This document shows, one piece after another, positions 8,065-64,000 of a DNA stretch of 64,000 nucleotides. The position numbers were made by a program, and so were the translations under genes. Below the pieces are notes generated by a model that did no database searches, was not told where the DNA came from, and saw nothing but the letters and a program-made list of their open reading frames with translations. Position 1 is the stretch's first letter. The number at the start of each line of letters is the position of its first letter. The stretch is from Myxococcota bacterium (lineage in GTDB: Bacteria > Myxococcota_A > UBA9160 > PR03). The stretch lies in NCBI GenBank assembly GCA_041611735.1, contig JBFIML010000020.1, positions 1-64,000 of the forward strand. The letters run 5' to 3'.

Positions 8065-8117
8065 AATCAGTACCGATCGAGTCCACTATTTACAGGACCG
8101 GAGCGGTCCCCTATGCT
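8065..8117 (+). promoter_or_regulatory. sigma70-type promoter of the suf operon with two putative Rrf2 operator boxes
   Basis: TTTACA(8089-8094)-17 nt-TATGCT(8112-8117); GTAC-N7-GTCC at 8070-8084 and GGAC-N7-GTCC at 8095-8109. Confidence 0.6.
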
Positions 8118-8152
8118 CCGAAGCGTCCGGGGTTCCGGGCGGGAGCACCGTC

Positions 8153-8632: not shown

Positions 8633-8643
8633 GGGAGGGATCC

Positions 8644-10086: not shown

Positions 10087-10865
10087 GCGGAGCAGGGACC
10101 TCGATGCTGGAGATCCGGGATCTCCACGCGCGCACGGCGGAACGCGAGATCCTGCGAGGCATCGACCTCGTGGTGCGCCCCGGCGAGGTGCACGCGGTGA
10201 TGGGCCCCAACGCCTCGGGCAAGAGCACGCTGGCCCACGTGCTGGCGGGCAAGCCCAGCTACCAGGTGACCCGGGGTGAGGTGCGCTTCGAAGGCAGCGA
10301 CCTGCTGGCCCTCTCGCCGGAAGAGCGTGCCTGCCGGGGCGTCTTCCTGGCCTTCCAGTACCCGGTGGAGATCCCGGGGGTCAGCAACCTCTACTTCCTG
10401 AAGGCGGCGCTGAACGCCGTCCGCACCCACCGGGGCGAGCCGGAGCTCGACGCGGTCGAGTTCCTGACCCTGGCCCGGGAGAAGATGAAGCTCGTGCACA
10501 TGGACGAGGAGCTGATGAACCGGGCCGTGAACGAGGGTTTCTCGGGCGGGGAGAAGAAGCGCAACGAGATCCTCCAGATGGCGATCCTCGATCCGAAGCT
10601 CGCCGTCCTCGACGAGACCGACTCCGGCCTCGACATCGACGCGCTCAAGATCGTCGCGGAGGGTGTGAACGCCCTGCGTCACCCGGCGCGCTCCATGGTC
10701 GTGATCACCCACTACCAGCGCCTGCTCGAGTACGTGGTCCCGGACATGGTGCACGTGCTGGCGGGAGGCCGCATCGTCCGCAGCGGCGGCAAGCAGCTCG
10801 CCCACGAGCTCGAGGAGAAGGGCTACGGCTGGGTCGAGCAGGAGGCGCAGACCGCCACCCGATGA
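10083..10865 (+). CDS. sufC: Fe-S cluster assembly ATPase SufC
   Basis: [47 protein letters not shown]. Confidence 0.96.
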
Positions 10866-12199: not shown

Positions 12200-13464
12200 G
12201 GCCGGCGCAACCCGTCGTGGCCGGGAACGCCGCCAAGCCCCCGCTCACCGACCTCGAGGTCGAGCGGCTGCGGGCGGACTTCCCGATCCTGGGCCAGCGC
12301 ATCCACGGCAAGCCCCTCGTCTATCTGGACAACGCGGCCACCACACAGAAGCCCCACGCCGTCCTGGAGGCCGTGACCCGCTACTACGAGCGCGACAACT
12401 CGAACGTGCACCGCGGTGTGCACGCCCTCGGCGAACGGGCCACGGCGGACTACGAAGGCGCCCGCGAGCGGGTGCGCCGCTTCCTGAACGCACGCGAGGC
12501 GCGTGAGATCGTATTCACGCGGGGCACCACCGAATCGATCAACCTGGTGGCCGCGAGCTTCGGGGCCCGCCTCCGCGCGGGCGACGAGATCCTGATCACC
12601 CACATGGAGCACCACTCGAACATCGTGCCCTGGCAGCTCCTGGTGGAGCGGACGGGAGCGCGGCTGCGGGTGGTGCCGGTGAGCGACGCCGGGGCGCTCG
12701 ACCTCGCCGATTTCGAGCGTGGGATCGGGCCTCGCACGCGCATCGTGGCGGTGACGCACGTCTCGAACGTGCTCGGGACCGTGAACCCGGTGCACGACAT
12801 CGTGGAGCTGGCGCACCGGGAGGGAGTCCCGGTCCTGGTGGATGGCGCCCAGGCCCCGGCCCGCCTGCCCGTGGACGTGCAGGGGCTGGGCTGCGACTTC
12901 TACGCCTTCTCGGGCCACAAGCTCTACGGGCCCACGGGGATCGGCGTGCTCTATGGTCGCGCGGAGCTGCTGGACGGGCTCCCGCCCTACCAGGGCGGCG
13001 GCCAGATGATTGCCACGGTGAGCTTCGAGAAGACCACCTTCGCCGGCCTCCCGGCCCGCTTCGAGGCGGGCACGCCGAACGTGTCGGGGGCGGTGGGGCT
13101 CGCCGCAGCCATCGACTACGTGGATGCGATCGGAACGGATCGCATCGAGGTCCACGAGCGGGATCTCCTGGCCCGGGCCAGCGAGGCGGTGACATCGGTC
13201 CCCGGAGTGCGGGTGATCGGCACAGCGCGCGACCGCATCGGCGTGCTCTCCCTCGTCCTGGAGGGCGTGCACGCCCACGACGTGGGCACCATCCTGGACC
13301 ACGAGGGCGTCGCGATCCGGGCCGGCCACCACTGCGCCCAGCCCCTGATGGAGCGCTACGGCGTGCCAGCCACGACCCGCGCCTCCTTCGGGCTCTACAA
13401 CCGGCGCGAGGACGTGGAGGCCCTGGTGAGCGGCCTGCATCGGGTCGTCCAGGTATTCGGCTGA
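12196..13464 (+). CDS. sufS: Cysteine desulfurase SufS
   Basis: YLDNAATTQKP, MEHHSN, FSGHKLYGPTG, RAGHHCAQP; ATGA overlap with sufD. Confidence 0.96.
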   Translation: MRPAQPVVAGNAAKPPLTDLEVERLRADFPILGQRIHGKPLVYLDNAATTQKPHAVLEAVTRYYERDNSNVHRGVHALGERATADYEGARERVRRFLNAREAREIVFTRGTTESINLVAASFGARLRAGDEILITHMEHHSNIVPWQLLVERTGARLRVVPVSDAGALDLADFERGIGPRTRIVAVTHVSNVLGTVNPVHDIVELAHREGVPVLVDGAQAPARLPVDVQGLGCDFYAFSGHKLYGPTGIGVLYGRAELLDGLPPYQGGGQMIATVSFEKTTFAGLPARFEAGTPNVSGAVGLAAAIDYVDAIGTDRIEVHERDLLARASEAVTSVPGVRVIGTARDRIGVLSLVLEGVHAHDVGTILDHEGVAIRAGHHCAQPLMERYGVPATTRASFGLYNRREDVEALVSGLHRVVQVFG

Positions 13465-14307: not shown

Positions 14308-15192
14308 ATGCCCCCCCGGCCGGACCGGACCGCGCCCACCGCGGCAGAGGCGCTCACGGTGGCGCTGGCCCGCTCCGTGGCGCGCGTGCTCGAGCACGAA
14401 GCCGGCGTGCGGCGCGGGGACGATGCGGAGGCCGTGCACCAGGCCCGCGTGGGCACACGCCGCCTGCGCTCGGATCTCGCCTCCTTCGATGCACTCCTGG
14501 ACCGAGACCGGGCGCGGGAGCTGCGGCGCGCGGTCCGGCCCCTGGCAAGTCGGCTGGGCACCGTGCGGGACGCCGAGGTCCTTCTGGCCCGCCTGCGCCA
14601 GCGGGTCCAGGAGCTCCCCGAGAAGGATCGGGTGACCGCGGGCCACCTGCTGCGGCGGCTGGAGTTCCAGCGCAGCCGCGAGCGCGTGGAGCTCCTGACC
14701 TTCCTGGACGGCGCCGAGTACCGGGCGCTGGTGGAGCAGCTGCGCCGGGCGGCAAGCCGTCCGGCGCTGGCACCGGCGAGCCGGGCGCCGGCCCGCGACG
14801 CGCTCCTGCCTCCGGTGCGGCGGCGCTGGAAGCGCCTGGCGGGCGCCGTGGCGGGTCTCGGCCCGACACCCGCCGCCAGCGAGCTGCACCGGGTGCGCAT
14901 CCTCGCCAAGCGCTGCCGCTACGCGGCCGAGGCGCTGATACCCGTCTTCGGGACTGCCTCCCGCGACTTCGCCCGCGCGCTGGCCCGCGCCCAGGACGTT
15001 CTCGGTGAGCATCAGGATGCTACCGTGATGCAGGGATGGCTCCGGGACGCGGGCGGCGACGCCCCCCCCGACGAGGCCTTCGTGGCCGGAGCGCTAGCCG
15101 CCCGCGAGGAGCGGGCCGCGGAGGAGGCGCGGGCGCGCTGGCCCGATGCATGGAAACGGGCATCCGCGCGCAAGCTGCGCCGATGGCTATGA
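14308..15192 (+). CDS. CHAD domain protein (polyphosphate binding)
   Basis: VHQARVGTRRLRS, LGTVRDAEV, LHRVRILAKRCRYAAE, QDVLGEHQD. Confidence 0.92.
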   Translation: MPPRPDRTAPTAAEALTVALARSVARVLEHEAGVRRGDDAEAVHQARVGTRRLRSDLASFDALLDRDRARELRRAVRPLASRLGTVRDAEVLLARLRQRVQELPEKDRVTAGHLLRRLEFQRSRERVELLTFLDGAEYRALVEQLRRAASRPALAPASRAPARDALLPPVRRRWKRLAGAVAGLGPTPAASELHRVRILAKRCRYAAEALIPVFGTASRDFARALARAQDVLGEHQDATVMQGWLRDAGGDAPPDEAFVAGALAAREERAAEEARARWPDAWKRASARKLRRWL

Positions 15193-15208
15193 GTCGCTCC
15201 GAGAGGGA

Positions 15209-16672
15209 ATGAAGCTCTACCTGGCACGCCACGCGAAGGCCAAGAAGCGCTCCCGCTGGGAGGCGGCGGATCCGCTGCGTCCGCTCACCAAGGCGGGCCG
15301 CCGTCAGGCCCAGGGCCTGCTCACCCTGCTGCAGGACGACCGTCTCGAGCGCATCGTGTCGAGCCCTCATCTGCGCTGCCGGGAGACCGTGGCGCCGCTG
15401 GCCAACGCGCGCGGCCTTCCGCTCGAGGTGGACGAACGCCTGGCGGAAGGCGAAGACCCCACCAAGGCGCTGGAGCTCGTGCGCGAGCTCGGCGCCGGGC
15501 CGGCGCTGCTGTGCAGCCATGGCGACGTGATCCCGCTCCTGCTCTGTGAGCTGGAGGAGCGCGGCCTCGAGCTGCGGGGCGAGCTCCGCTGCGAGAAGGG
15601 CTCCATCTGGCTGCTGGAGGGCGACGGCGGGGAGCCGCTGCGCGCCTCCTACCTGCCGCCCCCGGACAAGGAGCGCACGGCCGCCCCGCCCGAGCCGGAG
15701 GAGGATGGGGACGCGGAGGAGCTGCGCGTCGCGGTCCTGGACCTGGGCAGCACCTCGTTCACGCTGCTGGTGGCCGAGACGACGCCCGCCGGCCAGCTGG
15801 TTCCGGTGCTGCGCGAGCGCAGCATGCTGCGCCTCGGGGCCGCCATGGCAGGGGGCGGGCCGGTGCCCGAAGAGGTGGTCGCCCGTGCGGTGAAGGCGGC
15901 GCGGGCGCTGCGCAAGCAGGCCGTGGCGGCCCGGGCGGAGCGGCTGCTGCCGGTGGGCACCGCCGCCCTGCGCGATCCCGCGAATGGGCCGGTCCTGGCC
16001 CGGCGCCTGGGCAAGGCCCTGGATGCCCCGGTCCGCGTGCTGACCGGAGAGGAGGAGGCGCGGCTCATGTTCGCCGCCTTCCGCCGGCGCGTGGGCCTCG
16101 GGGAGGGGCGGGCCCTGGGCGTGGACCTGGGTGGGGGAAGTGTCGAGCTCGCCATCGGCGATGCTCGGGACGTGGTCTGGGAGACCACCCTGCCCCTTGG
16201 CGTGGTGCGCCTGCACGGGGAGCTGGTGCGCTCGGACCCCATGGCCCCCGAGGAGGCGGAGCTCCTGCGCCAGCGGGTGCGCGAGTGCCTGGCGCCGCTT
16301 CGCGCCAAGCTGGCGCGGCTAGCGCCCCGGGTCTGCATCGCGGCGGGCGGCACCGTCGGGGCGCTGGCCCGGCGCGTGGTGGCGCGGCGCGAGCTCCCCC
16401 CGGAAGCGCCCGTCAACCGGCTCTTCGTGCCGGCGGAGGAGCTGCGCCAGCTCACCGCCGAGCTGCTGCGCTCGACCCACGAGGAGCGGCTGCGCATGTC
16501 GAGCCTCTCGGCGCGGCGCGCGGACCTGATCCCGACCGGCGCCCTGGTGCTCTCCACCCTGGCCGACGAGCTCGCGCTCTCCGGCTGCACGGTGAGCGAC
16601 TGGGGCCTGCGGGAGGGGGTGATCCTCGAGCACCTGGGACTGGCGAGCGCGGACCGCCCCGCCCGGGCCTGA
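15209..16672 (+). CDS. Histidine phosphatase (SixA/MutT1-C-like) fused to Ppx/GppA exopolyphosphatase
   Basis: N-term LARHAKA...RPLT...SSPHLRC...CSHG; C-term VLDLGSTS, GTAALRD, GEEEAR, DLGGGSVE, GLREG. Confidence 0.85.
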   Translation: MKLYLARHAKAKKRSRWEAADPLRPLTKAGRRQAQGLLTLLQDDRLERIVSSPHLRCRETVAPLANARGLPLEVDERLAEGEDPTKALELVRELGAGPALLCSHGDVIPLLLCELEERGLELRGELRCEKGSIWLLEGDGGEPLRASYLPPPDKERTAAPPEPEEDGDAEELRVAVLDLGSTSFTLLVAETTPAGQLVPVLRERSMLRLGAAMAGGGPVPEEVVARAVKAARALRKQAVAARAERLLPVGTAALRDPANGPVLARRLGKALDAPVRVLTGEEEARLMFAAFRRRVGLGEGRALGVDLGGGSVELAIGDARDVVWETTLPLGVVRLHGELVRSDPMAPEEAELLRQRVRECLAPLRAKLARLAPRVCIAAGGTVGALARRVVARRELPPEAPVNRLFVPAEELRQLTAELLRSTHEERLRMSSLSARRADLIPTGALVLSTLADELALSGCTVSDWGLREGVILEHLGLASADRPARA

Positions 16673-16681
16673 AGCTCCCCT

Positions 16682-17554
16682 TCACCCCTCCTCCTCGAGC
16701 TCCCGGCGCATGGCTTCGAAGCGCGCATGCTCCTCGGCGGCCACGTCCGGGTATTCGAGCCCGAGGCCGCGCAGGCTCTCCACCAGGAGCTCCGCCACGC
16801 ACAGGCGCATCCACGGCTTGTCGTCGGCGGGGATCGCGTACCAGGGCGCCCAGGGCCGCGAGGTGGCGTTCAAGGCCTCCTCGTAGGCCTCCATGTAGTC
16901 GTCCCAGAAGCGCCGCTCGTGCACGTCGGCGGGCGAGAACTTCCAGTTCTTCTTGGCCTCGTCGATGCGAGAGAGGAAGCGGCGCCGTTGCTCCGGCTTC
17001 GAGACGTTCAGCCAGAACTTGAGCACCAGCATGCCGTTGCGGGCCAGATGCTTCTCGTGGTCGCGGATCGACTCGTAGCGCTGCTTCCAGAGCGCCTTGC
17101 GATCCAGGTCGGGCAGGCGCTGGCCGTCCAGGAACTCCGGGTGCACCCGGACCACCAGCACCTCCTCGTAGTAGCTGCGGTTGAAGATCCCGAAGCGGCC
17201 GCGTTCCGGCAGCCGCCGCGTGGTGCGCCATAGGAAGTCGTGGTCGAGCTCCTCGCGGCTCGGCGCCTTGAAGGAGAAGACCTGGCAGCCGGCGGGATTC
17301 ACGCCGGTCATGACCGCGCGGATCGTGCCGTCCTTGCCAGCGGCGTCGAGGGCCTGGAAGACCAGCAGCACGGCCCAGCGGTCGTCGGCGTACAGCTTGC
17401 GCTGGAGCTCGTAGAGCTCCTTGATGCACCGGGCGAGCCGCTTGCGGCAGGTCTTCTTGTCGGGCGCGTCCTGGGGCGGGCGGGTCGGGGCATCGGCGAT
17501 CCGGAAGGAGCCGTCCTCCGGCACCAGATAGGAACTCTTCACGGCCTGGAACAC
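16682..17554 (-). CDS. ppk2: Polyphosphate kinase 2 family (likely class III)
   Basis: QALDAAGKDGTI, SFKAPS, HDFLWR, FNRSYYEEVLVVRVHP, WKFS. Confidence 0.93.
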   Translation of the reverse strand: MFQAVKSSYLVPEDGSFRIADAPTRPPQDAPDKKTCRKRLARCIKELYELQRKLYADDRWAVLLVFQALDAAGKDGTIRAVMTGVNPAGCQVFSFKAPSREELDHDFLWRTTRRLPERGRFGIFNRSYYEEVLVVRVHPEFLDGQRLPDLDRKALWKQRYESIRDHEKHLARNGMLVLKFWLNVSKPEQRRRFLSRIDEAKKNWKFSPADVHERRFWDDYMEAYEEALNATSRPWAPWYAIPADDKPWMRLCVAELLVESLRGLGLEYPDVAAEEHARFEAMRRELEEEG

Positions 17555-17564
17555 GACGTCCTCC

Positions 17565-19223
17565 CTAGGCGGCCGCGTCGCCGGAACGCACGCCCTGCGC
17601 CGTCCGCTCCTCGGGGACGACCGTATCGAGGCCGCAAAGGTAGCGGGTCCCGCGCTCCGCCTGCTGGACCAGGCGCCGCACGTTGCTGAGCAGGTCGAGC
17701 TGGTCCACCAGATCGCGCACGGAGAGACGGCCCTGGGTGCCTGCCCGCAGCAGCTCCGCCTTGAGGCCCTGGTACTGCCCCTGGAGGCGCTCCAGCGCGT
17801 CGGCGCAGGCCTGGGGGGAATAGCCGGGCACGTCGAGGCCGGCTCCGTCCAGGAAGGCCGCCGCCGCGTCGCGGAAGCGGTCGACCTCCTGCGCCAGATC
17901 CTCGACCGGCGGGGGCTCGGCCTGGCGGCGGGCCTGGTCGATCGCCTCCGCCAGCTCCGCCACCTCCGCGTAGTAGCGGGAGACGCGCAGCGCGTTGGGA
18001 AGCACCTCGTCGAGCTCCGCCGGAAGGTGGCTGCGCCGCATCCGGCTCGAGAACTCGCCCACCTTCTCCACCAGCGCCTGGAGGGCGCTGCGGTCCGCGG
18101 CCAGGCGCGCCGGTGAAGCCGGCGTCGGCGCCAGGGCTCCCCGCCCCATGCGACGGGCGATGCTCCCCACCCGGGCCAGCTCCATGACGAGCGCGTGCAT
18201 GGCCAGCACCGGCGTGGCGACCACGTTCCGATCCAGGTAGCGCGGGCGCGCCTCGTCCTCCTCGGGGGTGCGGAAGCGCTGCTCGAGCACGCGGACCAGG
18301 AGGCCCGTGAAGGGCAGCAGCAGAGCCACCCCGAGCAGGTTGAAGAGCGTGTGGAAGCCCGCCAGCACCGCGGCGGGCTCGCTCTCCAGGGCCAGGAAAC
18401 GGCGCGCTGCCACGAGGCCGGCCAGCAGGAGCGGGAGCATCAGGAGCGCCACGAACCCGGTGATCCCGTTGAAGGCCACGTGGGCCGCGGCCACGCGCTT
18501 TGCGTTGGAGGTGGCGCCGATCACGGCCAGCGCGGCCGTCGAAGTGGTGCCGAGGTTGGCGCCGATCACCATGGCCGCCGCGGAGCCCAGGGGGACGACG
18601 CCCCCGCCTGCGGCCGTGAGCACCACCGCCAGGGCCGCGCTCGACGACTGCATGAGGAGCGTCAGCAGGAAGCCCGCGCCCGCGAAGAGCAGGGCACCGC
18701 CGACCCCCGTCGCACGGAAGGTGGGCAGGCCGCCGACTTCCAGACCGGCGAAGGTCGCCTTCAGCACGTCGATGCCCAGGAAGAAGATGCCGAAGCCGGC
18801 CAGGGCCTCGCCCAGCGGCGCGCGGCGTCCCCCGCCGCCCGTGAGCCGCAGCGCCATGCCCACACCGATGGCCGGCAGGGCGAAGGCCCGGACGTCTACC
18901 TGGAGCCCGATCCCGGCCACGAGCCAACCCGTCATGGTGGTGCCCACGTTGCTGCCGAAGATCACGGCCACCGCCTGGGCCAGGCTCATGAGCCCGGCGT
19001 TCACGAAGCCGATGGCGGCCACGGTGACGGCGCTCGAGGACTGGACGATCGCCGTGATGAGCGCCCCCGAGAGCACGCCGCGCAGTGGAGTGCGGGTCCA
19101 GCGCTCGAGGACCGTGCGCAGCGCCCGGCCCGCCGCCAGGCGCAGCCCATCGGTCATGAGACGCATGCCGAGCAGGAAGAGCCCGACGCCTCCCAGCAGG
19201 CCGGCCAGCGGCATCGCGCTCAA
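17565..19223 (-). CDS. Na/Pi cotransporter family protein (with PhoU-like C-terminus)
   Basis: GLFLLGM, two QSSS repeats, GSNVGTT / GANLGTT. Confidence 0.92.
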   Translation of the reverse strand: MSAMPLAGLLGGVGLFLLGMRLMTDGLRLAAGRALRTVLERWTRTPLRGVLSGALITAIVQSSSAVTVAAIGFVNAGLMSLAQAVAVIFGSNVGTTMTGWLVAGIGLQVDVRAFALPAIGVGMALRLTGGGGRRAPLGEALAGFGIFFLGIDVLKATFAGLEVGGLPTFRATGVGGALLFAGAGFLLTLLMQSSSAALAVVLTAAGGGVVPLGSAAAMVIGANLGTTSTAALAVIGATSNAKRVAAAHVAFNGITGFVALLMLPLLLAGLVAARRFLALESEPAAVLAGFHTLFNLLGVALLLPFTGLLVRVLEQRFRTPEEDEARPRYLDRNVVATPVLAMHALVMELARVGSIARRMGRGALAPTPASPARLAADRSALQALVEKVGEFSSRMRRSHLPAELDEVLPNALRVSRYYAEVAELAEAIDQARRQAEPPPVEDLAQEVDRFRDAAAAFLDGAGLDVPGYSPQACADALERLQGQYQGLKAELLRAGTQGRLSVRDLVDQLDLLSNVRRLVQQAERGTRYLCGLDTVVPEERTAQGVRSGDAAA

Positions 19224-25251: not shown

Positions 25252-26151
25252 TCAGCGCTCCCGCCAGCGGGGGATTCGCCCCGCGATCCGGGTCCAGCCG
25301 AGGCGCTCGAAGAGCGGCTCGACCCGGCGCCGCTCCGCCCCGCGCCAGGCGAGGCGCTCCGGAGCGCGAGGCAGGCCCGGGACGTCGCGGCGCAGGGTGG
25401 CGAGGGCCCGGGTGCGGAACGCCCGGGCACGGTGCTTCTCGACGAGGGCCGCCAGGCGCGCGGCGCCGCGCAGCCCCGTCCGCGCCCAGTCGGCGGGATC
25501 GGCGGGCACCGCCTCGATCGAGCCGAAGGCCTCGAGCAGCGCGGCGGCGCGGCGCGGGCCCACGCCCGGGACGCCCGGCAGGTTGTCCACCGCATCTCCC
25601 ACCAGGCCGAGCCAGTCCGGGATGCGGGCCGGGGGCACGCCGAAGCGGCGCCGGACGCCCTCGGCATCGATCGTCTCGCCTCGGGCGAAGTCGTTCCAGA
25701 CGATGCGACCGTCCTCGCTGACGAGCTGGGCCAGGTCCTTGTCCGAGCTCACCACCACGACCCGCGCGCCCCGAGCGTGCAGACGGGTGGCGAGCGTTCC
25801 GATCACGTCGTCCGCCTCGAAGCCCTGGGCGAGGAGCGCCGGGACGCCCAGGGCGCGCGCCACGTCGACGCACAGCTCGAACTGGGGCTCGAGCTCTGGG
25901 GGCGGCTCCGTACGGCCGGCCTTGTAGGCGGGCTCCAGCTCGTTGCGGAAGCTCGTCAGTGCGAAGTCGAAGGCGGCCGCCAGGTGGGTAGGGCGCACCT
26001 CGGAGAGGAAACGCAGCATGCTGCCCGCGAAGCCGTAGGCGGCCCCGGTGGGCGTACCGTCGGGGGCAAACATGGGCGGCAGCGCGTGCCAGGCCCGGAA
26101 GATCCAGACGTGGGCGTCGATCAGATGGACGCACGGGGCGCCGCGCCCCAC
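25252..26151 (-). CDS. Standalone 5'-3' exonuclease / flap endonuclease (PolI N-terminal-like)
   Basis: LIDA, FRNEL..YKAGR, GFEADDVIGTL, SSDKDLAQL, GDAVDNLPGVPGVG. Confidence 0.9.
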   Translation of the reverse strand: MGRGAPCVHLIDAHVWIFRAWHALPPMFAPDGTPTGAAYGFAGSMLRFLSEVRPTHLAAAFDFALTSFRNELEPAYKAGRTEPPPELEPQFELCVDVARALGVPALLAQGFEADDVIGTLATRLHARGARVVVVSSDKDLAQLVSEDGRIVWNDFARGETIDAEGVRRRFGVPPARIPDWLGLVGDAVDNLPGVPGVGPRRAAALLEAFGSIEAVPADPADWARTGLRGAARLAALVEKHRARAFRTRALATLRRDVPGLPRAPERLAWRGAERRRVEPLFERLGWTRIAGRIPRWRER

Positions 26152-27957: not shown

Positions 27958-29103
27958 TCAGGCATCCGGATCGAGCAGTGCGAGGACTCCGGTGTAGGTG
28001 AGCAGCTCGGGTCGACCGCTCTGCGCAGCGACCTGACAGGTGCCCGACGCACCCACCACCGCCGCCTTGCCGAAGGCCCGCTCCAGGTAGGCCGCCTCGA
28101 GCCCGGCGAAGCCGAAGAGCTCGGAGCCACCGGCGGCGCAGCCCAGGTGCAAGGCAGCGGCGGGAGCAGTCGCCGCGCACGCTTCGAGAGCGTCTGCCAG
28201 CTCCGCGCGCGCCGCATCCGCGTCGCGCAGCACGAGGGCGAGACGTTGGCCGGGGCGCAGGGCCTCGGGGAGTGCAAGGGCGCGGCGGCGCGCATCGAAC
28301 CCGACCGGGCTGCGGGCCACCCAGTGGCCGTGGCCGACGGTCCGCTCCAGGGCGAGCAGGACGACCCGTGCCGCACGGGGAAGGTCGTCCGCCAGGCGAC
28401 CGCGCGCCGCGGCGCGGTAGACGTCGAGGGCCGGTCGGCCGTCCAGGGCAAGGATCCAGTGCCCGCTGGACCGCGTCACCGCCAGGGGAGACCCGATGCG
28501 CCGGTACGACGGGACCACCGCGACGCGGGGTTGGCGAGGGGCACGTACGAGGAGCGCCGCCAGCCCCCCCTCGACCCGTCGGCCGGCGGCCCAGACCGTC
28601 GCGTGGGCAGCCGTGGCCTCGGCCCCTGCGCCCACCAGCGTTGCGGGCCCGAGGGCGCGGGCCAGGCCTTCGAGGAAGGGGGCCTTCGTCAGGGTGGCGG
28701 GGTCGAAGAAGAGCACCACCAGGTCGCGTCCACCCGGTCCCCCGTCCAGGCAGGCCGCGATCTCCGCTCCGAGAGCCTCCTCGCCACCCCGGACCGGGTC
28801 GACGAGCAGAGCCTGACCCGTGACTCCGCCCAGGGCGAGCACCGCCACGGCGGGGCGGTCCCGTTCCTCTTGGCCGAGAGCGTGAACCGTCCGGGCCATG
28901 AAGCCGGCCGCAGCCGGGGTACCGAGCGCCTTGCCGGCGGCGGCCAGGAGCGGGCCGAGCCCGCCGGCATGGGCTGGCGTGGCGAAGACCAGGGCGGCGT
29001 CGGCCCGGGCCAGGCCCGCCCGTCCGAGGGCCCCCGCCGACGCCTCCCGGGCTGCGAGCCCCGGGTCGACGGCCACCGAGAGCCCCGCTCCCGCGACGAG
29101 CAT
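27958..29103 (-). CDS. FIST N/C-domain signal protein
   Basis: FIST-like motifs (LDGRPALD, LRDADAA, LLTYTGV). Confidence 0.75.
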   Translation of the reverse strand: MLVAGAGLSVAVDPGLAAREASAGALGRAGLARADAALVFATPAHAGGLGPLLAAAGKALGTPAAAGFMARTVHALGQEERDRPAVAVLALGGVTGQALLVDPVRGGEEALGAEIAACLDGGPGGRDLVVLFFDPATLTKAPFLEGLARALGPATLVGAGAEATAAHATVWAAGRRVEGGLAALLVRAPRQPRVAVVPSYRRIGSPLAVTRSSGHWILALDGRPALDVYRAAARGRLADDLPRAARVVLLALERTVGHGHWVARSPVGFDARRRALALPEALRPGQRLALVLRDADAARAELADALEACAATAPAAALHLGCAAGGSELFGFAGLEAAYLERAFGKAAVVGASGTCQVAAQSGRPELLTYTGVLALLDPDA

Positions 29104-29314
29104 GGCGGCCGAGTATAGGACTGGCGCCGCTTCGGGCGTCCTCCCGTGCGGCCCCGGGGATCCGATTTCGATCCACTTCCCGTGGCCTTGCTGGCTATCC
29201 CCCGGGGGGCCAGCTTTCGCCCGCCGCGGGCCTCGGCTACCCTGGGCAGCGCGCGGCGATCGTTCCCTCCTCGCGCCATGTTTCCCCCGTTCGGACGCGG
29301 AGCCGGGACCGCCC

Positions 29315-30475
29315 TTGGCCGACCATCACTTCATCGAGCGCCAGGCCGAGCTCAAGGCGCTGGCGAAGGACCTGCTTCGCGAGCCGGTCGTCGCCATCGA
29401 CACCGAGGCGGACAGCTTCTACCACTACTTCGACAAGACCTGCCTCGTGCAGGTAGCCACGCAAGCCGGCATCTACCTGATCGATCCGCTGGCACTCGGC
29501 GGACCCGCCGCCCTGGCGCCGCTCGGCCCGCTGCTGGCCTCACGCAAGGTCCGCAAGATCTTTCACGCCGCGGAGTACGACCTCTACGTGCTCAAGCGCG
29601 ACTGCGGCTTCCGCTTCGCGGGACTGTTCGACACGATGGTCAGCGCCCAGCTGCTCGGCTACCCCTCGGTGGGCCTGGCCGCGCTGATCGAACGGCACTT
29701 CCAGGTGAACCTTCCCAAGGACGAGCAGCGCTCCGACTGGTCCCAGCGGCCGCTACGCGACAGTCAGCTCGCGTATGCGGCGGCGGACGTGGACCACCTG
29801 ATCGAGCTGGCCGAGCGGCTGGAGGAGGAGCTCCGGGAGCGGGGCCGCCTGGAGTGGGCCCAGGAGGAGTTCCAGACCCTGACGCGCCGGGAGTGGCCGG
29901 CCCGGGAGTTCGACGCACTGGGCTACCTGCGCGTCAAAGGCGCCCGGGCCCTGGATCCCCACGCCCTCGGCGCACTGCGGGAGCTCTACCTGATGCGTGA
30001 TGCGCGCGCCCGGGAGGTGGACCGGCCGCCCTTCAAGGTGCTCGGCAATCGGACGCTGCTGGAGATCGCCCAGGAGCGGCCGCGCAGTCTGAAGGCTCTG
30101 GGGCGCATCAAGGGCGTCTCGGACCTGATTCTGCGGCGGCTGGGCCGGGAGGTTTTGGAAGCCGTGGAGCGCGGGATCCAATCCCCCCATGGGCCGCTGC
30201 CGAGGGGCAACGGGGGCGGGAGACGCCGGATGGACCGACGCACCGAGCGGCGCATGACCCGCATCAAGCGCTGGCGCTCCGAGCGTGCCCGCGAGCTCGG
30301 CATGGACCCGGGCGTCCTGTGTCCCAACACCGCGCTCGAGGCCGTGGCCTGGCGCCGCCCGGGCAGCCCCGCCGAGCTGGCCGAGATCCCCGAGTTGAAG
30401 GGCTGGTTCGTGCGCGCCTTTGGCAAGGAGCTCGTGGGGGCGCTCGGAGACAGCGAGGCCGGCGCGGAGGATTGA
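29315..30475 (+). CDS. rnd: Ribonuclease D
   Basis: AIDTEADS, LVQVA, FHAAEYD, FDTM, SDWSQRPL, YAAADV, HRDC regions; TTG start inferred. Confidence 0.9.
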   Translation: MADHHFIERQAELKALAKDLLREPVVAIDTEADSFYHYFDKTCLVQVATQAGIYLIDPLALGGPAALAPLGPLLASRKVRKIFHAAEYDLYVLKRDCGFRFAGLFDTMVSAQLLGYPSVGLAALIERHFQVNLPKDEQRSDWSQRPLRDSQLAYAAADVDHLIELAERLEEELRERGRLEWAQEEFQTLTRREWPAREFDALGYLRVKGARALDPHALGALRELYLMRDARAREVDRPPFKVLGNRTLLEIAQERPRSLKALGRIKGVSDLILRRLGREVLEAVERGIQSPHGPLPRGNGGGRRRMDRRTERRMTRIKRWRSERARELGMDPGVLCPNTALEAVAWRRPGSPAELAEIPELKGWFVRAFGKELVGALGDSEAGAED

Positions 30476-57346: not shown

Positions 57347-57560
57347 GGCGGAACCGACGGTAGCGCCCGGGGCCCCGCCGCGCGCAGCCAGGCCTGGCTG
57401 AGCGAAGGTCGACAGCCCCAGGAACGAGAGCGCCCCGGGGCCGCTCGGGCCGCCGGGGCGCGTCGTCCGAGCCCCCACCCCCCTGCTGGAGGACTCGGAT
57501 ACCCTGTCGATCGGCAACTCCAGCGGATTCTTGAGCCCCCACGGCCGAGGAGGCCCGTCC

Positions 57561-58589
57561 TTGCACGCGCCCGTGCCCCTGGACGAAGCCAGCCTGCCCG
57601 GCTTCCTGCGCCGGGCCGGCCTCCTGGCAGACGGGACCCGGGTGGCGGTCGAGCCGGCCGGGGACGGCAACATCAACTGGGTCCGCCGCGTCCGCGCCGG
57701 CGACGGACGATCGTGGATCGTGAAGCAGGCCCGCCCGGCCCTGGAGCGTTTCCCCGAGTACCGGGTCACCCCGGATCGCATCCTCTTCGAGGCGCGCTAC
57801 TACGAGACGGTGCGACCCTGGGACGACGAGAAGGTCCTCCCCGAGGTCCTGCACTTCGATGGCGACGCCCGGGTGCTCGTACTGGAGGACCTCGGCCCGG
57901 TCACCCGCCTCGACCACGCCCTCCTGGCGGGCTCCGATGGCCGGGCCCCGGTCCGCCGGCTAGCCCGCTTCCTGGGTCGGGTGCACGCCGCGAGCGCCGA
58001 AGCGGGCCTGGCAGGTCGCTTCGAGAACCACGAGATGCGGCGCCTGCACGGCGACCACATCTTCGACCTCCCCTTCCACCCCAACGACTTCCCCCTGCCG
58101 CCCCAGCTGCGCTGCCGGGCCGAGGCGCTCTGGCAGGACCGCGAGCTCGTCGAGCTCGCCGCCGCCGCCTACCAGCGCTATGCCACCGGTCCGGAGGGCG
58201 TTCTCGTGCACGCCGACGTCCAGGCCGGCAACGTGCTGCTCGCGCCCCGGGCGAAGCTGCTCGACGCCGAGATCGCCCACGTGGGGGACGCGGCCTTCGA
58301 CCTCGGCACGCTGCTGGCCCACGTGCTGCTGCCGGCCTGTGCCCGCGGGAGCCTGGCGGCCGCCCGCTCCACGGCCGCGCAGGCCTGGGAGGCCTACCGC
58401 GAAGCCTGGCCGGCGGGTCCGCCCTTCGCGGACGTGGCTCGCTACGCAGGCATCGAGATGGTTCGCCGCAGCGTGGGCGCCGCGCGGGTCGCCGCCGTGG
58501 AGGCCCAGGAGCCTGCGCTGGCCGCCTTGGGGCTCGGTACGTCGCTGATCCGCAATCCGCCGAGGGATCCTCGCCAGCTCGGTGGCTAA
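57561..58589 (+). CDS. Methylthioribose kinase-like phosphotransferase (APH fold)
   Basis: GDGNINWV, VKQA.P, HAD..AGN, DAE...GD..FDLG; GAGGAGG SD before TTG. Confidence 0.75.
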   Translation: MHAPVPLDEASLPGFLRRAGLLADGTRVAVEPAGDGNINWVRRVRAGDGRSWIVKQARPALERFPEYRVTPDRILFEARYYETVRPWDDEKVLPEVLHFDGDARVLVLEDLGPVTRLDHALLAGSDGRAPVRRLARFLGRVHAASAEAGLAGRFENHEMRRLHGDHIFDLPFHPNDFPLPPQLRCRAEALWQDRELVELAAAAYQRYATGPEGVLVHADVQAGNVLLAPRAKLLDAEIAHVGDAAFDLGTLLAHVLLPACARGSLAAARSTAAQAWEAYREAWPAGPPFADVARYAGIEMVRRSVGAARVAAVEAQEPALAALGLGTSLIRNPPRDPRQLGG

Positions 58590-59455
58590 CGGCCCGCCCT
58601 CTGCGTCTCCGGTGTGACGGGAGGCTCGTCGTCCTCCGCCCAGCGGATGCGCTCGTAGTCGAAGCCGTCTGCCACCACGTTGAACTTCACCACCTCGAAG
58701 TACGGCGAGAGGTCGAAGTCCCGGGGCGTCAGCAACGTCGGGTGCCGCATGCGGAAGATGCCGGTGTAGGTCGGACTCTCGTGACCAAAGACGCGGCGCA
58801 GGACACCGCGCCGCGGCAGGTGGGGCGAGCGGCGCCCCTCCGGGTAGCTCACGATGGGGAGGATCGGGAAACGCACCTGCTGGAACAGACGCCCGATCAG
58901 GCCCGAGCAGATCACCTCCGTGATCTGGCCGCTGCCGAAGTGGAGAGCGGTGCGCCGCCAGCGGTTCGGCACCATGGAGACGGGGATCAGGTAGCGCGCG
59001 AGGTCGAAGAGATGACGCAGGTCGTAGCGCCAGCCCATCGCCGCCACCGCCTCGTCCATGATGCGCTGCCGGTGCTCGTGGCGCAGCTTTCGGGGGCGGC
59101 AGACGCGCAGATTGAAGTCCACGTACTTGAGGAGGGGCGCGGCCACGACTCCCTCCGGCAAGGCCTCGACCACCAGGTGGGCCGCCTCCTCCCCGAACTG
59201 CTCGAGAGCCTGCTCCCGCAGATCGCCGCCCCGCACCAGCAGCTCGTCCCCGATGTAGAGCGCTGCGTGCGACCAGCAGCTCTGGGTCAGATACTTGATG
59301 ATTGCGGAGACGCGCTGGTCTCCCTCCACCAGCACCACGTCGCCCTTCTGGACGCGGCCGCACAGGGAGTCCGGGTCGTTCCAACCCCGGCGCTCGTAGT
59401 GCGGGAGCGGCTGGGTCAGGTAGGACACCATCTGCCGTACCAGCCAGCGCCTCAT
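58586..59455 (-). CDS. Permuted papain-like amidase (YiiX/YaeF, NlpC/P60)
   Basis: GDVVLV, WSHAALY, YD, ICS, PRDFD. Confidence 0.82.
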   Translation of the reverse strand: MRRWLVRQMVSYLTQPLPHYERRGWNDPDSLCGRVQKGDVVLVEGDQRVSAIIKYLTQSCWSHAALYIGDELLVRGGDLREQALEQFGEEAAHLVVEALPEGVVAAPLLKYVDFNLRVCRPRKLRHEHRQRIMDEAVAAMGWRYDLRHLFDLARYLIPVSMVPNRWRRTALHFGSGQITEVICSGLIGRLFQQVRFPILPIVSYPEGRRSPHLPRRGVLRRVFGHESPTYTGIFRMRHPTLLTPRDFDLSPYFEVVKFNVVADGFDYERIRWAEDDEPPVTPETQRAGR

Positions 59456-59872
59456 GGCTCGCCACCTCGTGCGCAGGACCACCCCGCGTCGTGGACCCGC
59501 TCCGCATCCGGCTCGCCGGGCGGCCCCCCGCCCAACCGGTGCCGCTTGCGGGGCGGCGGCCCCCCTGCCCCCCCGCCGGCAAGCGCTTCCGGCGGGGGTT
59601 GGGGCCCTGCCCCCTCACAGCTCTCCGGGCCGGCGGGACGGGGGCATCTTACGCCCCCTTCGCCTTTCGGCCCGCCGCGGGCCCGGGCTGAGCCGTGGCG
59701 CTCTGGATGGGGCGCCTGCCGCCAGGCTTCGGAGCTCCGTCGCACCACGCCCCCGAAAAGACTGGCGATTTTCCATAGCCGTTTCCCCGGCCGTGTTGTA
59801 TCCTTAGGACTCGTAAGAAATCCCTTTAATTTACAGATACTTATAGGATCTTTGGCGAGCAGAAGGGATCCG

Positions 59873-60091
59873 ATGGACGTCAGAATCAAGGCCAGCGTCG
59901 AGTTCACCGTCTCGGGCGCCGCCCTGGAGGACGCCTTGGCGGAGTTCGATGAGCTCTCGCTGGAAGGGCTGCTCCGGGAGGTGATCGACAAGGCGGTTGC
60001 CTGCGACGAGATCCGCGTGAAGGTCCTCGAGGGTCCCAACACCCTCGAGGAGTACGATCAGCAGCAGGAGCGCGCCAGCTCCCAGTCCTGA
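59873..60091 (+). CDS. Small acidic hypothetical protein (72 aa)
   Basis: AAGGGA SD, ATG, strong GC3 codon bias, followed by a hairpin. Confidence 0.75.
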   Translation: MDVRIKASVEFTVSGAALEDALAEFDELSLEGLLREVIDKAVACDEIRVKVLEGPNTLEEYDQQQERASSQS

Positions 60092-60092
60092 A

Positions 60093-60110
60093 CCCCGGGA
60101 CGCCCGGGGG
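60093..60110. terminator. Hairpin between convergent genes
   Basis: ccccggg acg cccgggg. Confidence 0.5.
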
Positions 60111-60113
60111 CGC

Positions 60114-60524
60114 TCAACCAAACAGACGCAGCTGGAGCGGACCGGTAGCCCGCTGGGGAAGCGCCGGCGGCGCCGCGGTCGCCCCACGACTCGGGACCCG
60201 AGGCCGGTAGATTCCCTCGGCGCGGGCGTGGTCGAGGAGCCGCAAGTAGAAGGCCCGGAAACGCGGCCCGTGGTTGAAGTGCCGCAGGTGTGCCAGCTCG
60301 TGGCAGAGCGTCGACACGAGGCTCGAGTAGCGCAGCGGGCGCCCGGTCACTGCGTGGAACAGGCGGATCCGGATGCTTCCGTCCGCAAAGCAGATGCCGT
60401 AGCGACGTTTCACGTTGCGACGCTCGGCTTGCAGCGATCGGAAGCGCAGCCCGAAGCTTGCCGCGAGCCGCTCCGCATCCCGGTTGAGACGTGCCACCAG
60501 CTCCTGGGCCGTGCGCCGGTCCAT
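60114..60524 (-). CDS. WLM/Wss1- or YgjP-like zinc metalloprotease with C-terminal QLRLF motif
   Basis: TLCHELAHLRHFNHGPRF (HExxH-x5-H). Confidence 0.8.
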   Translation of the reverse strand: MDRRTAQELVARLNRDAERLAASFGLRFRSLQAERRNVKRRYGICFADGSIRIRLFHAVTGRPLRYSSLVSTLCHELAHLRHFNHGPRFRAFYLRLLDHARAEGIYRPRVPSRGATAAPPALPQRATGPLQLRLFG

Positions 60525-60595
60525 CGGTGGGGACGGAGTGTCTCGATCCACCCCGCGGACGTCAAGCCACGCCCCGCACTTGTTATCCTCGAAGC

Positions 60596-61273
60596 GTGTC
60601 CGAACAAGGCCGCATCCAGAGCCTGGCACTCTTCCCGCTGGCGAGCGTGGTGCTCTTCCCGGGTGGACGCGTGCCCCTGCACATCTTCGAGCCGCGCTAC
60701 CGTCAAATGACCCGCGACGTGCTGGCGGGCGACCGGCGCATCGGCATGGTGGCCATTCCTCCGGAGCACTTGACGGAGGCGGCCGGGGATCCCCCGCTCT
60801 ATTCCGTGGGGTGCGCCGGCAGTGTCGAGCAGGTGCGGAGGCGGAGCGACGGACGCTACGACCTCGTGCTGATCGGCACGCATCGCTTCCGCATCCTCGA
60901 CGAGCCGGCGCGCCCCACCGACCGCAAGTATCGCATCGCCAGCGTGGAGACCCTGGAGGAGGCCGTGGACCCGCTTGAGATCCCCCGCCTGCATGCGTTG
61001 CGCATGAAGGCGATCGAGCTGCTGGCGCGGCTGGTTCGTCACCTGACCAGCGACGCGGCCGTCCCCCTGCGGGCGGAGCGGTTCGCCGGCATCGAGGACG
61101 CCACCTTCGTGAACGTCCTCTGCCAGCTTCTCGATCTCCCGACGCCCGAGAAGCAGGGTCTCCTGGAGGCCGAGGGGCTGGCGCACCGCTGCGAGCGGCT
61201 CGTCACGGTGCTTCGCTTCCGGCTGGCGGAGCTCGAAGGCGGCCTTCCGGAGCCGCCCCGGACGCTCCACTAG
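60596..61273 (+). CDS. Standalone LON peptidase substrate-binding domain protein
   Basis: LFPL..VLFPG..PLHIFEPRYRQM, DGRY, G.HRFRI, KQGLLE. Confidence 0.9.
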   Translation: MSEQGRIQSLALFPLASVVLFPGGRVPLHIFEPRYRQMTRDVLAGDRRIGMVAIPPEHLTEAAGDPPLYSVGCAGSVEQVRRRSDGRYDLVLIGTHRFRILDEPARPTDRKYRIASVETLEEAVDPLEIPRLHALRMKAIELLARLVRHLTSDAAVPLRAERFAGIEDATFVNVLCQLLDLPTPEKQGLLEAEGLAHRCERLVTVLRFRLAELEGGLPEPPRTLH

Positions 61274-61625
61274 AGAGCGCGAAAAAACCCGATAAAGTCA
61301 GAGAAACGGCGTCCGGTCGAGGTCGAGCGCCACCCTCCGAGATGCGGATTCCCGACCGCGACACCGTCGCGCAGCGACCCAGGGGGCCTCAACGAAGAAC
61401 CCGGACCCGCTGGTTTCGTGACCGGTTTCCGCGCGCCAAAACGTTGGTTCTCGTCGGAAAGAAACCCCGTCTCGCGGGTTGCTTGCGCGTGTAGGGGGCG
61501 CCCCGGGACCGGCCTCTTTCGGCCCTTGCGGGCGCGCCGGGCGGTGTGCTCTACTGCGCCCGCTTGTGGGGATGCTCCAGCCGGGAAGTCGCCCGGAGAC
61601 CGCGAAAATCTCCGAGAATCAATAG

Positions 61626-63128
61626 ATGGATCCCTGCCCCTCCCTGTGGAAAGGAGTGCTCCGCCGCTTGGCGTCGGAGCTGCCGCCGATCGCCTTCGAG
61701 GCGTGGCTGCGGCCCCTGGCCGCCGAGCCGGATGGGGACGGCCTGCGCCTGCTGTGCCCTTCGCCGTTCCACCGCGACCGGGTGCGCGAGCGCTACCTGG
61801 CGAAGATCGTCGAATGCGCCGCCCGGGAGGGAGGGCGCCGGGTCCCGGTGAGCCTCGACGTGCAGGCGTCGGACCGGGAGGCGGCGCCCGCCGGAAACGC
61901 CTCCCCCGGGGCTCCGACACGGAGCGTCTCGGGCCGCGACGGGCGCAGCCCCGAAGCCGCGGCGGGTGCGACGCGGGTCGCCCCTCGTGGTCCGGGGCGG
62001 GACGCCGCCGGCTGCACGCCCCAGCGGACCCTGCCCTACACCTTCGAGACCTTCGTGGTCGGGCGCTGCAACGCCCTGGCCCGGGAAGCCGCCCTGGCCC
62101 TGGCCCGGGGCGGACAGCTGGCGCTGAGCCCCCTCTACCTGCTCTCGGCACCGGGGCTCGGCAAGACTCACCTGGCCCGCGCCGTGGCCGCCGAGGCCGC
62201 CGCCGGACGGGCCGTGAGGACCCTGTACGCCTCCGCGGAGCACTTCACCAGCGAGTTCATGGCCTCGATCCGCTCGCGGCGCACCGCCGAGTTCAAGCGG
62301 CGCTTCCGCGAGCAGTGCGACCTGCTGGTGGTCGACGACGTGCATTTCCTGGCCAACAAGGTGTCCACGCAGCTCGAGTTCTTCCACACCCTGGAGCACC
62401 TGCGCAGCGTCGGGGCGCATGTCGTGCTGACGGGCGATCGGCTGCCGAAGCAGATCTCGGGCCTCGACCCGTGTCTCGAGTCCCGTCTCGCCAGCGGCCT
62501 CGTGGCCGAGATCGAGCCCCCGGACGCCACCGTGCGCCGACGGATCCTGCGCACCAAGGCGGCTGCCGGCGGCGTGCGGCTGCCCGACGACTGCCTGGAC
62601 CGGCTCGTGGAGGCGGTACGCGGCAGCGTGCGCGACCTCGAGAGCGTCCTGATCCAACTGGTGGCCAGCGCGTCGCTGCTCAAGCGATCCATCGACCTCG
62701 AGCTGACGGAGGCGGCGCTGCGCAAGCTCTTCCCGGCCCCGACGCGCTGCGGCCAGCTCGAGCCCGCCGAGGTGATCGAGGTGGTGTGCGCGTTCTTCGG
62801 CTTTCCCTCCCAGGCGCTGGCCTCCCGCTCACGGCGGCGCGACGTGCTGATCCCGCGGCAGATCGCCATGTACCTGTGCCGCCGCTACACCGGCGCCTCC
62901 CTGAAGGCCATCGGCCGCGCCCTGGGGCGAGACCACCCCTCGGTGACGAACGCCGTCGCCGCCATCGAGCGCCTGATGCTGGAACGCGTGCCCCTGCGCT
63001 ATCAGGTGGAGGCGCTATCGGACCGCCTCGACGGTCGCAGCGGGAGCGGTGCCGGAGCAACGGGTACGGGCCACCTCGGGTCCCCGCGCCCAGGAGTACA
63101 GCCCCCGCAGGCCCCGACCCCGGCCTGA
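61626..63128 (+). CDS. dnaA: DnaA-family replication initiator paralogue (domains I-IV)
   Basis: YTFETFVVG, GLGKTHL, DLLVVDD, EFFHT, PRQIAMYL, RDHPSV; no dnaN downstream. Confidence 0.85.
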   Translation: MDPCPSLWKGVLRRLASELPPIAFEAWLRPLAAEPDGDGLRLLCPSPFHRDRVRERYLAKIVECAAREGGRRVPVSLDVQASDREAAPAGNASPGAPTRSVSGRDGRSPEAAAGATRVAPRGPGRDAAGCTPQRTLPYTFETFVVGRCNALAREAALALARGGQLALSPLYLLSAPGLGKTHLARAVAAEAAAGRAVRTLYASAEHFTSEFMASIRSRRTAEFKRRFREQCDLLVVDDVHFLANKVSTQLEFFHTLEHLRSVGAHVVLTGDRLPKQISGLDPCLESRLASGLVAEIEPPDATVRRRILRTKAAAGGVRLPDDCLDRLVEAVRGSVRDLESVLIQLVASASLLKRSIDLELTEAALRKLFPAPTRCGQLEPAEVIEVVCAFFGFPSQALASRSRRRDVLIPRQIAMYLCRRYTGASLKAIGRALGRDHPSVTNAVAAIERLMLERVPLRYQVEALSDRLDGRSGSGAGATGTGHLGSPRPGVQPPQAPTPA

Positions 63129-63193: not shown

Positions 63194-64000
63194 CTAGCCG
63201 GCCGCAGCCGCCGGCTCGCGCCGCCAGCGCCGCGGGCCACTCTCCGGTGCGCGGCGGTCCGGCTCGAGGGAGGCGGGATCCCGGGCCGGATCCTCGAAGC
63301 GGCGAAGGATCTCGTACCGGGTGCTGCGCTCGGCTGGTACGCGCCCCATCTCCCGGATGAGCCGGCGGATGTCTTCGGCCGGAAGGTTCTCGCCGAAGTC
63401 GGCCCCCGACTCGCGGCTGATGGACTCCTCCATCAGGGTGCCCCCGAAGTCGTTGGCGCCGGCCAGCAGGCCGAGCTGGGCCAGCTTAGGACCCATCTTC
63501 ACCCAGGAGACCTGGATGTTGGGGATCCAGGGTCGCAGGAACAGACGTGCCACGGCCAGGAGGCGCACGTCCTCCGGCGCGGAGGAGCCGGGCCGGGCCC
63601 CCAACTCCTGGAACAGCCGGTTCAGCGAGTGGATGAAGCCGAGGGGCACGAACTCCGTGAAGCCGCCGGTCTCCTTCTGGAGCTCCCGGAGGAGCGCCAG
63701 ATGGTTCGCCACGTGCTCGACCTCCTCGATGTGCCCGTACATGAGCGTCGCCGTGGAACGCAGACCGACGCCGTGCGCCGCCTTGACGATCTCCACCCAG
63801 CGATCGCGCATCAGCTTGCGAGGGGCGATGATCCGGCGGATCCGGTCGTCCAGGATCTCGGCCGCGGTGCCGGGAATCGTGCCGAGCCCTGCTTCCTGGA
63901 GCCATCGCAGGTAGTCGGCCAGCGGCATGCCGCTCTTCTGGTGGCCCCAGTCGATCTCCTCGGGCGAGAAGGCGTGGATGTGCAGGTCCGGGAAGGCGCG
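63194..64000 (-). CDS. cofH: CofH-like radical SAM protein (FO synthase subunit 2 / MqnC-E family), 5'-partial
   Basis: HIHAFSPEE, PGTAAEILDD, TLMYGHIE, FTEFVPLGF, NIQVSWVK, NDFGGTLMEESISR. Confidence 0.8.
   Translation of the reverse strand, partial: RAFPDLHIHAFSPEEIDWGHQKSGMPLADYLRWLQEAGLGTIPGTAAEILDDRIRRIIAPRKLMRDRWVEIVKAAHGVGLRSTATLMYGHIEEVEHVANHLALLRELQKETGGFTEFVPLGFIHSLNRLFQELGARPGSSAPEDVRLLAVARLFLRPWIPNIQVSWVKMGPKLAQLGLLAGANDFGGTLMEESISRESGADFGENLPAEDIRRLIREMGRVPAERSTRYEILRRFEDPARDPASLEPDRRAPESGPRRWRREPAAAAG

Follow-up and report, generated by a model that had tools for sequence, protein, structure and literature searches.

The reverse strand of the window (the whole 64,000-nucleotide stretch of Myxococcota DNA that was analysed) encodes a small, strongly basic zincin of the Wss1/WLM type, which ends in a conserved pentapeptide resembling those that bind the bacterial sliding clamp. 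We interpret this protein, with somewhat better than even confidence, as a DNA-associated metalloprotease that is tethered to DnaN and removes crosslinked or trapped proteins at replication forks, in convergence with the SPRTN–PCNA system. The observations underlying this interpretation are the family and fold, the intact catalytic residues, the basic charge, the disordered tail and the conserved terminal motif; binding to DnaN and to DNA, protease activity and the identity of the substrates are predictions.

Gene, start codon and probable promoter

The gene and its probable promoter occupy the following positions:
60114..60524, reverse strand: metalloprotease coding sequence (136 aa plus a TGA stop), WLM/YgjP-like with a C-terminal clamp-binding-type motif
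60537..60565, reverse strand: probable promoter, with TTGACG at 60565–60560, a 17-nt spacer and GACACT at 60542–60537, 12 nt before the ATG

Read from ATG 60524, the open reading frame (60114–60629, reverse strand) yields 136 aa (MDRRTAQELV...YGICFADGSIRIRLFHAVTGRPLRYSSLVSTLCHELAHLRHFNHGPRFRAFY...PRVPSRGATAAPPALPQRATGPLQLRLFG), a translation identical to the sequence string quoted in the earlier note. That note had also described the protein as basic, in agreement with a calculated pI of 11.8 and a content of 26 lysine and arginine vs. 9 aspartate and glutamate residues. No family model for the 136-aa protease was found in NCBIfam. A homologue search with the 136-aa query yielded 2407 candidates, of which 2353 reached E ≤ 1e-3; the 120 best of these (58–76% identical to the query) constituted the close-homologue set, from which alignment A1 was built.

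Homologues of 126–171 aa aligned from residue 1 of the version starting at ATG 60524, and the conserved promoter was located just upstream of this codon, which was therefore taken as the start. A 171-aa version starting at GTG 60629 was rejected, since the homologues begin at ATG 60524 and the conserved promoter falls inside the extension. The promoter pattern TTGAC(G)-N17-GAnACT was found 36–61 nt upstream of the start, and its TTGAC was present in 40 of 46 upstream regions, with 0.03 occurrences expected per region. Scans of positions 59400–61700 for strict sigma-70 consensus promoters and for terminators gave no match. General inspection of the upstream regions gave no sign of damage-inducible regulation, as the promoter spacer was not conserved and no operator was seen.

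Family and fold of the catalytic core

The core and its predicted zinc site are encoded as follows:
60201..60524, reverse strand: catalytic core, residues 1–108 (AlphaFold2 pLDDT 96–99; pI 11.5)
60270..60302, reverse strand: zinc site HELAHLRHFNH, residues 75–85 (H75, E76 and H79, with H85 as the presumed third ligand)

The AlphaFold2 model based on alignment A1 had a mean pLDDT of 92.3, with values of 96–99 for residues 1–110, and its core consisted of a helix (residues 3–24), three strands, the HExxH helix (66–79) and a further helix (87–102). H75, E76 and H79 were invariant and H85 was conserved in at least 90% of the 120 aligned sequences, so the active site, judged by these residues, looks intact throughout the family. 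The third histidine, H85, lies six residues past H79, and HELAHLRHFNH aligns with HELTHNVHGEH of Wss1 from Schizosaccharomyces pombe (5jig).

The earlier note had assigned the protein to a Wss1/WLM-like group and had proposed to score it against the WLM, SprT-like and YgjP profiles. In Pfam, the highest score was that of YgjP-like (PF01863; 40.3 bits vs. a cut-off of 26), which was matched at profile positions 108–197 of 207 only; this match represents the catalytic half, and the N-terminal half of the YgjP domain is missing from the query. The WLM match (PF08325) was marginal at 27.3 bits vs. a cut-off of 26, i.e., 1.3 bits above it, and SprT-like (PF10263) remained below threshold (21.9 bits vs. 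25.6). When the 120 members were scanned one by one (E ≤ 1e-3), 116 matched YgjP-like, 112 matched WLM (best E 1.4e-17) and 69 matched SprT-like, so by its profile matches the family sits between these related zincin groups.

Comparison with solved structures pointed to Wss1. A search of all PDB sequences with the A1 profile ranked S. pombe Wss1 (5jig) first with an E-value of 5.1e-9, and also recovered Saccharomyces cerevisiae Wss1p (5xbn; 2.8e-5), while SPRTN was marginal (E 0.079). The top five Foldseek matches of the AlphaFold2 model in the PDB were all Wss1 (5xbn, 5xbv, 5ln5 and 5jig among them), the best being 5xbn with TM-scores of 0.68/0.71 and an rmsd of 2.1 Å over 109 columns; the minigluzincins selecase and proabylysin followed, and SPRTN ranked 14th with a TM-score of 0.39. 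Searched against viral models, the AlphaFold2 model matched WLM-/SprT-like proteins of giant viruses and phages. As far as the modelled fold is concerned, "Wss1/WLM-like" is a fair description and the original assignment holds, with the caveat that YgjP-like gives the top Pfam score. The protease is a catalytic core only, and we would not call it a Wss1 orthologue.

Across the family, median values for the core were 10.5 (pI) and +11 (net charge). Being strongly positively charged, it probably binds DNA, and charge is the sole ground for this assignment; a DNA-binding domain like the ZBD of SPRTN is absent from the 136-aa protein. In the source databases, the homologues are named "Wss1p-related putative metallopeptidase," "M48 family metallopeptidase," "DUF45 domain-containing protein" or "predicted metal-dependent hydrolase." Longer or fused forms were rare, amounting to 12 proteins of 239–2000 aa at E ≤ 1e-5, all of which except P0196 and P0280 carried the WLM and YgjP-like families only, so the stand-alone form is the rule.

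Disordered linker and terminal motif

The remainder of the protein is made up of two elements:
60135..60200, reverse strand: Pro/Ala/Arg-rich disordered linker, residues 109–130 (pLDDT about 70; no secondary structure by DSSP)
60120..60134, reverse strand: QLRLF, residues 131–135, a pentapeptide of the beta-clamp-binding type, with only G136 between it and the stop codon

In the AlphaFold2 model, residues 110–136 had a pLDDT of approximately 70 and were assigned no secondary structure by DSSP, and no further Pfam domain was detected in the 28 residues past the core, which comprise the P/A/R linker and QLRLFG. The pentapeptide, which the earlier note had read at 60134–60120, was confirmed at residues 131–135. 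It is located one residue from the C-terminus, in a flexible segment, and fits the QL[S/D]LF or QxxLF type. The pentapeptide QL[S/D]LF, more generally QxxLF, is the commonest clamp-binding motif, with positions 1, 4 and 5 being critical, and PolC carries QLSLF at its C-terminus (passages of PMC12309361).

Loss of QLxLF among homologues had been put forward as an outcome that would refute the clamp-tethered protease; the motif proved to be conserved, whereas the linker varied. It was present after HExxH in 118 of the 120 close homologues, and in 99 of these 118 it ended 0–1 residue from the C-terminus; the two exceptions were P0050, which has QRDLF, and P0097, which has no such motif. Diverged relatives were collected by an exhaustive search of 50% identity clusters, which gave 308 representatives at E ≤ 1e-3. 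Among the 150 of these 308 that were examined, 108 had at least 50 aa after HExxH, and this number served as the denominator. Strict QLxLF was found in 61/108, a loose form in 7/108 (QMSLF, QMNLL, QMWLF, QLQLL, QIDLL, QFSLF and QLDLL) and neither in 40/108. Many of the latter look like fragmentary or frameshifted gene calls, and seven of the 40 end, by eye, in a QxxLF-like sequence (QQTLF, QARLF, QRRLF, QGALF, QGKLF, QGLLF and QASLF). The 21 most distant among the matches listed (E > 1e-10) were mostly short proteins, with the motif in 3 only. At the level of loci, QLxLF was present in the protease reading frame at 74 of 80 (the best 80 of 247 species genomes); the other six comprised two cut by contig ends, two with QLALL and QLSLL, respectively, one with QRDLF and one with no motif.

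For a closer view of the tail, 179 family sequences were anchored on QLxLF, which makes Q, L, L and F constant by selection of the sequences. Position 3 was mostly S or D (S 59, D 45, E 19, A 18, G 17 and T 11; n = 179), and proline was found at position −2 before the motif in 121 of the 179. Each of the ten positions −12 to −3, as well as −1, had an entropy of approximately 3 bits (n = 179). The linker was 10–217 aa long, with a median of 26, and contained 22.5% P, 18.1% A and 14.2% R (n = 179). Chance occurrence of the motif was low: the six-frame reading frames of at least 100 aa in the window contained a single QLxLF in 95,545 residues, namely that of the protease, and the 80 loci contained 131 in 1,591,589 residues, of which 74 belonged to the protease itself, leaving approximately 3.6e-5 per residue elsewhere.

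A disordered linker that varies freely while the pentapeptide at its end stays fixed is the pattern one would expect of a functional short linear motif. Because the motif fits the clamp consensus and is conserved, the QLxLF pentapeptide is predicted to dock in the hydrophobic cleft of the sliding clamp, DnaN. The family variants QMSLF, QMNLL, QLQLL and QLDLL presumably lie within the range of known clamp motifs.

Some observations concern the origin of the tail. The most distant relatives (about 95–118 aa, E > 1e-10) consist of just the catalytic core and lack both linker and motif, and one mainly viral (Uroviricota) Atlas cluster is related to the protease with a score of 0.90. Together they suggest, as a lead only, that a mobile minimal zincin gained the clamp tail.

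Distribution and gene neighbourhood

Relatives were confirmed in 247 species-representative genomes, and the locus counts given here cover the best 80 of these 247. All 80 loci were from metagenome-assembled genomes, mostly labelled Myxococcota or Deltaproteobacteria. A few carried the labels Spirochaetales, Opitutales or Gammaproteobacteria; because their gene order was the same as in the other loci, we attribute these labels to noise in binning or naming. Myxococcota were likewise the source of the Atlas clusters closest to the protease. The family is confined to one uncultured Myxococcota lineage and is not a general bacterial solution. The G+C content of the window is 72%.

The protease gene is flanked by the following genes:
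59876..60091, forward strand: open reading frame of 71 aa (MDVRIKASVEF...), convergent with the protease gene
60596..61273, forward strand: stand-alone Lon N-terminal (substrate-binding) domain gene (Pfam LON_substr_bdg, 2.7e-34), divergent from the protease gene
61626..63128, forward strand: dnaA (Pfam Bac_DnaA, Bac_DnaA_C and DnaA_N), downstream of the Lon N-domain gene
63194..64000: mqnC/cofH-like radical-SAM gene, convergent, after dnaA

The start of the Lon N-domain gene at GTG 60596 is a guess, its reading frame opening at 60491. The 71-aa reading frame had no Pfam or NCBIfam match but gave a tblastn match beside the protease gene in 75 of the 80 loci, with 48–83% identity. Among the same 80 loci, dnaA was also found in 75 and the Lon N-domain gene in 71, followed by the mqnC/cofH-like gene (55), a C92 amidase gene (34) and the kinase-like gene (29). 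DnaA identity went down to 42–70% across these loci. The linkage to the Lon N-domain gene and dnaA is better kept than that to the other flank; since all loci derive from one lineage, this is a lead and not proof of a functional link.

A tblastn search with DnaN of E. coli K-12 at E ≤ 1 gave no match to dnaN in the window or in the 80 loci (10 kb around the gene), and the Pfam scan of 51 reading frames of the window gave no match to DNA_pol3_beta. In the window, dnaA is preceded by the stand-alone Lon N-domain gene and the next gene is the mqnC/cofH-like one, not dnaN. No replication origin was apparent in the window: the GC-skew profile had no clear switch, and a search for DnaA boxes with one mismatch allowed gave 1 match vs. 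1.15 expected, located far from the protease gene, with no cluster.

The intergenic region contains a second conserved element, GGATA(A/T/C)CA(C)GCG-like, approximately 25–35 nt upstream of the TTGACG of the protease gene (window positions 60525–60640 and the upstream regions of the loci). On the other strand this GGATA-type element reads TGTTATCCT and is located some 8 nt ahead of GTG 60596, the probable start codon of the Lon N-domain gene. Given this spacing, the mRNA of the Lon N-domain gene may have little or no leader, the two genes being transcribed from promoters arranged back to back.

Proposed mechanism and alternative explanations

In the mechanism that we propose, the enzyme would act as a minimal (about 105 aa) zinc metalloprotease of the WLM/SprT/YgjP zincin group, with a fold closest to that of yeast Wss1. 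Its positively charged core would bind DNA, as the charge suggests, and the flexible Pro/Ala/Arg linker would present QLxLF so that the pentapeptide could dock in the DnaN cleft, as suggested by the motif and its conservation. Docking would concentrate the protease where clamps are loaded, i.e., behind replication forks and at repair sites or patches, where it would cleave proteins that are covalently crosslinked to, or otherwise trapped on, DNA. Cleavage of such DNA-bound proteins would let replication or repair proceed, and the protein would correspond in function to Wss1 and SPRTN, as a bacterial analogue with a convergent domain architecture. Passages of PMC7782752 describe Wss1 and SPRTN as DNA-dependent proteases without sequence specificity and the WLM domain as lacking a substrate pocket; they also report that SPRTN interacts with PCNA and list PCNA among the partners of proteases that act on DNA–protein crosslinks.

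The position of the gene could alternatively indicate that a clamp-tethered protease regulates replication by degrading one specific control substrate, e.g., DnaA or a clamp-bound factor, possibly with the Lon N-domain protein as an adaptor. We regard this as unlikely, although the gene is divergent from the Lon N-domain–dnaA pair and this linkage is kept (71/80 and 75/80 loci, respectively), with DnaA identity falling to 42–70% across these loci, while the other flank is less kept (C92 amidase gene 34/80, kinase-like gene 29/80). Lon N-domains are described in Pfam as substrate-binding domains, and a Wss1-type core has no substrate-binding pocket (passages of PMC7782752). However, the synteny on which this explanation is built comes from one lineage alone and could be explained by shared ancestry, the protease gene and the Lon N-domain–dnaA pair are on opposite strands, and neither a DnaA-box cluster nor a GC-skew switch marks an origin in the window. 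A clamp-dependent proteolytic switch on initiation seems to us very unlikely; here the tethered protease, once DnaN is loaded, would degrade DnaA or another initiation factor with the Lon N-domain protein as adaptor. It would explain why the gene stays beside the Lon N-domain gene and dnaA in 71–75 of 80 genomes and, if true, would be a proteolytic counterpart of Hda-mediated DnaA inactivation.

Two further explanations concern the tail and the chemistry of the core. As DnaN binding of QLxLF is a prediction, and as short hydrophobic C-terminal peptides are used by systems other than the clamp, the tail could be a degron or a docking peptide for another partner, with the enzyme working away from the replisome. 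This is improbable in our view, because the motif fits the clamp consensus at four fixed positions with S or D preferred at position 3, and family variants (QMSLF, QMNLL, QLQLL and QLDLL) fall within what we take to be the known range of clamp motifs; in addition, the motif ends a disordered linker, as in PolC (passages of PMC12309361). We consider it highly doubtful that the enzyme is a non-protease, i.e., a YgjP-type metal-dependent hydrolase that acts on nucleotides or other small molecules and might still have a clamp tether. E. coli YgjP is reported to act as a nucleotide pyrophosphatase, YgjP-like gives the top Pfam score (40.3 bits) and is matched by 116 of the 120 members, and the source names include "predicted metal-dependent hydrolase." Against this, the YgjP profile is matched only at positions 108–197 of 207, its catalytic half, and Wss1 came first in both the sequence and the fold searches of solved structures.

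Comparison with known systems

Wss1 (5xbn, 5jig and 5ln5) is the best solved sequence relative and shares the minimal zincin fold (TM-scores 0.68/0.71, rmsd 2.1 Å), as well as HExxH followed by a histidine six residues past the second histidine of the motif. Identity is only 19–24%, however, and the Myxococcota protease is bacterial and not known as an orthologue. The two also differ after the catalytic domain. Wss1 carries SUMO-, ubiquitin- or Cdc48-binding modules after its WLM domain; none of these was found in the Myxococcota protease by Pfam or in its 28-residue tail, which consists of linker and QLxLF without another Pfam domain. Its recruitment would instead go through DnaN.

The resemblance to SPRTN (Spartan) is of another kind. 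Both would combine a zincin protease with a disordered tail that holds a short sliding-clamp-binding peptide, predicted in our case and directed to PCNA in SPRTN (passages of PMC7782752). By sequence and fold they are further apart, the SprT-like score being 21.9 vs. 25.6 bits, the profile E-value 0.079 and the fold rank 14 with a TM-score of 0.39, and the Myxococcota protease lacks the ZBD, the UBZ and the SHP box. Because the predicted clamp is DnaN rather than PCNA and QLxLF is unrelated to the PIP box, we consider the likeness to be convergent.

Regarding YgjP-like/DUF45 proteins (PF01863), the likeness lies in the highest Pfam score (40.3 bits) and in HExxHxxxxNH, which we take to be the signature of that family and which is present in the Myxococcota protease. 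The N-terminal half of the YgjP domain is missing, however, and to our knowledge YgjP has no clamp-binding tail. With the clamp-binding proteins (PolC, Pol II/IV/V, MutS/L, Hda and others), the protease shares a terminal and flexible QL[S/D]LF or QxxLF motif (passages of PMC12309361), whereas the known partners are polymerases and repair and replication-control factors. The human protease FAM111A is similar in concept, as it interacts with PCNA and clears protein obstacles at forks (PMC7067828), but it is eukaryotic, has a trypsin-like serine protease domain and shows no homology to the Myxococcota protease.

The earlier note had considered such a protein as not characterised, in agreement with our full-text literature search, in which mainly titles and abstracts were covered and no bacterial clamp-binding protease of the WLM, SprT or YgjP type was described. 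Databases already list these proteins under generic names, so that the apparent novelty lies in the conserved tether to the clamp and in its implied function. Dedicated crosslink proteases, Wss1 and SPRTN, are described for eukaryotes, whereas for bacterial crosslink repair only nuclease-based routes, nucleotide excision repair and recombination, are named (passages of PMC7782752). If the proposed function is true, replication-coupled proteolytic repair evolved in bacteria too, converging on the combination of a protease with a clamp peptide, and the list of clamp clients gains a protease. With a core of about 105 aa, the enzyme would then also serve as a very small, tractable system in which to study how the activity of such promiscuous proteases is restricted to DNA.

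Other genes in the window

The kinase-like gene at 57531–58589 (forward strand) had no Pfam match at E ≤ 1; in NCBIfam it matched methylthioribose kinase below threshold (128.6 bits vs. a cut-off of 275). Two nuclease genes were present, both without QLxLF: a stand-alone 5′–3′ exonuclease that is FEN-like and of the Pol I N-terminal type (25255–26151, reverse strand), and an RNase D-like 3′–5′ exonuclease with two matched HRDC stretches (28898–30475, forward strand). A Tad/type-II-secretion-like set at 1009–5508 encodes a ParA/MinD-type ATPase, a T2SSE ATPase and two T2SSF proteins; it is followed at 7819–13464 by a SUF iron-sulfur assembly operon (SufB, SufC, SufD and SufS). The region 14308–19223 holds a polyphosphate/phosphate cluster consisting of a CHAD-domain protein, a Ppx/GppA phosphatase–histidine-phosphatase fusion, PPK2 and a Na/Pi cotransporter.
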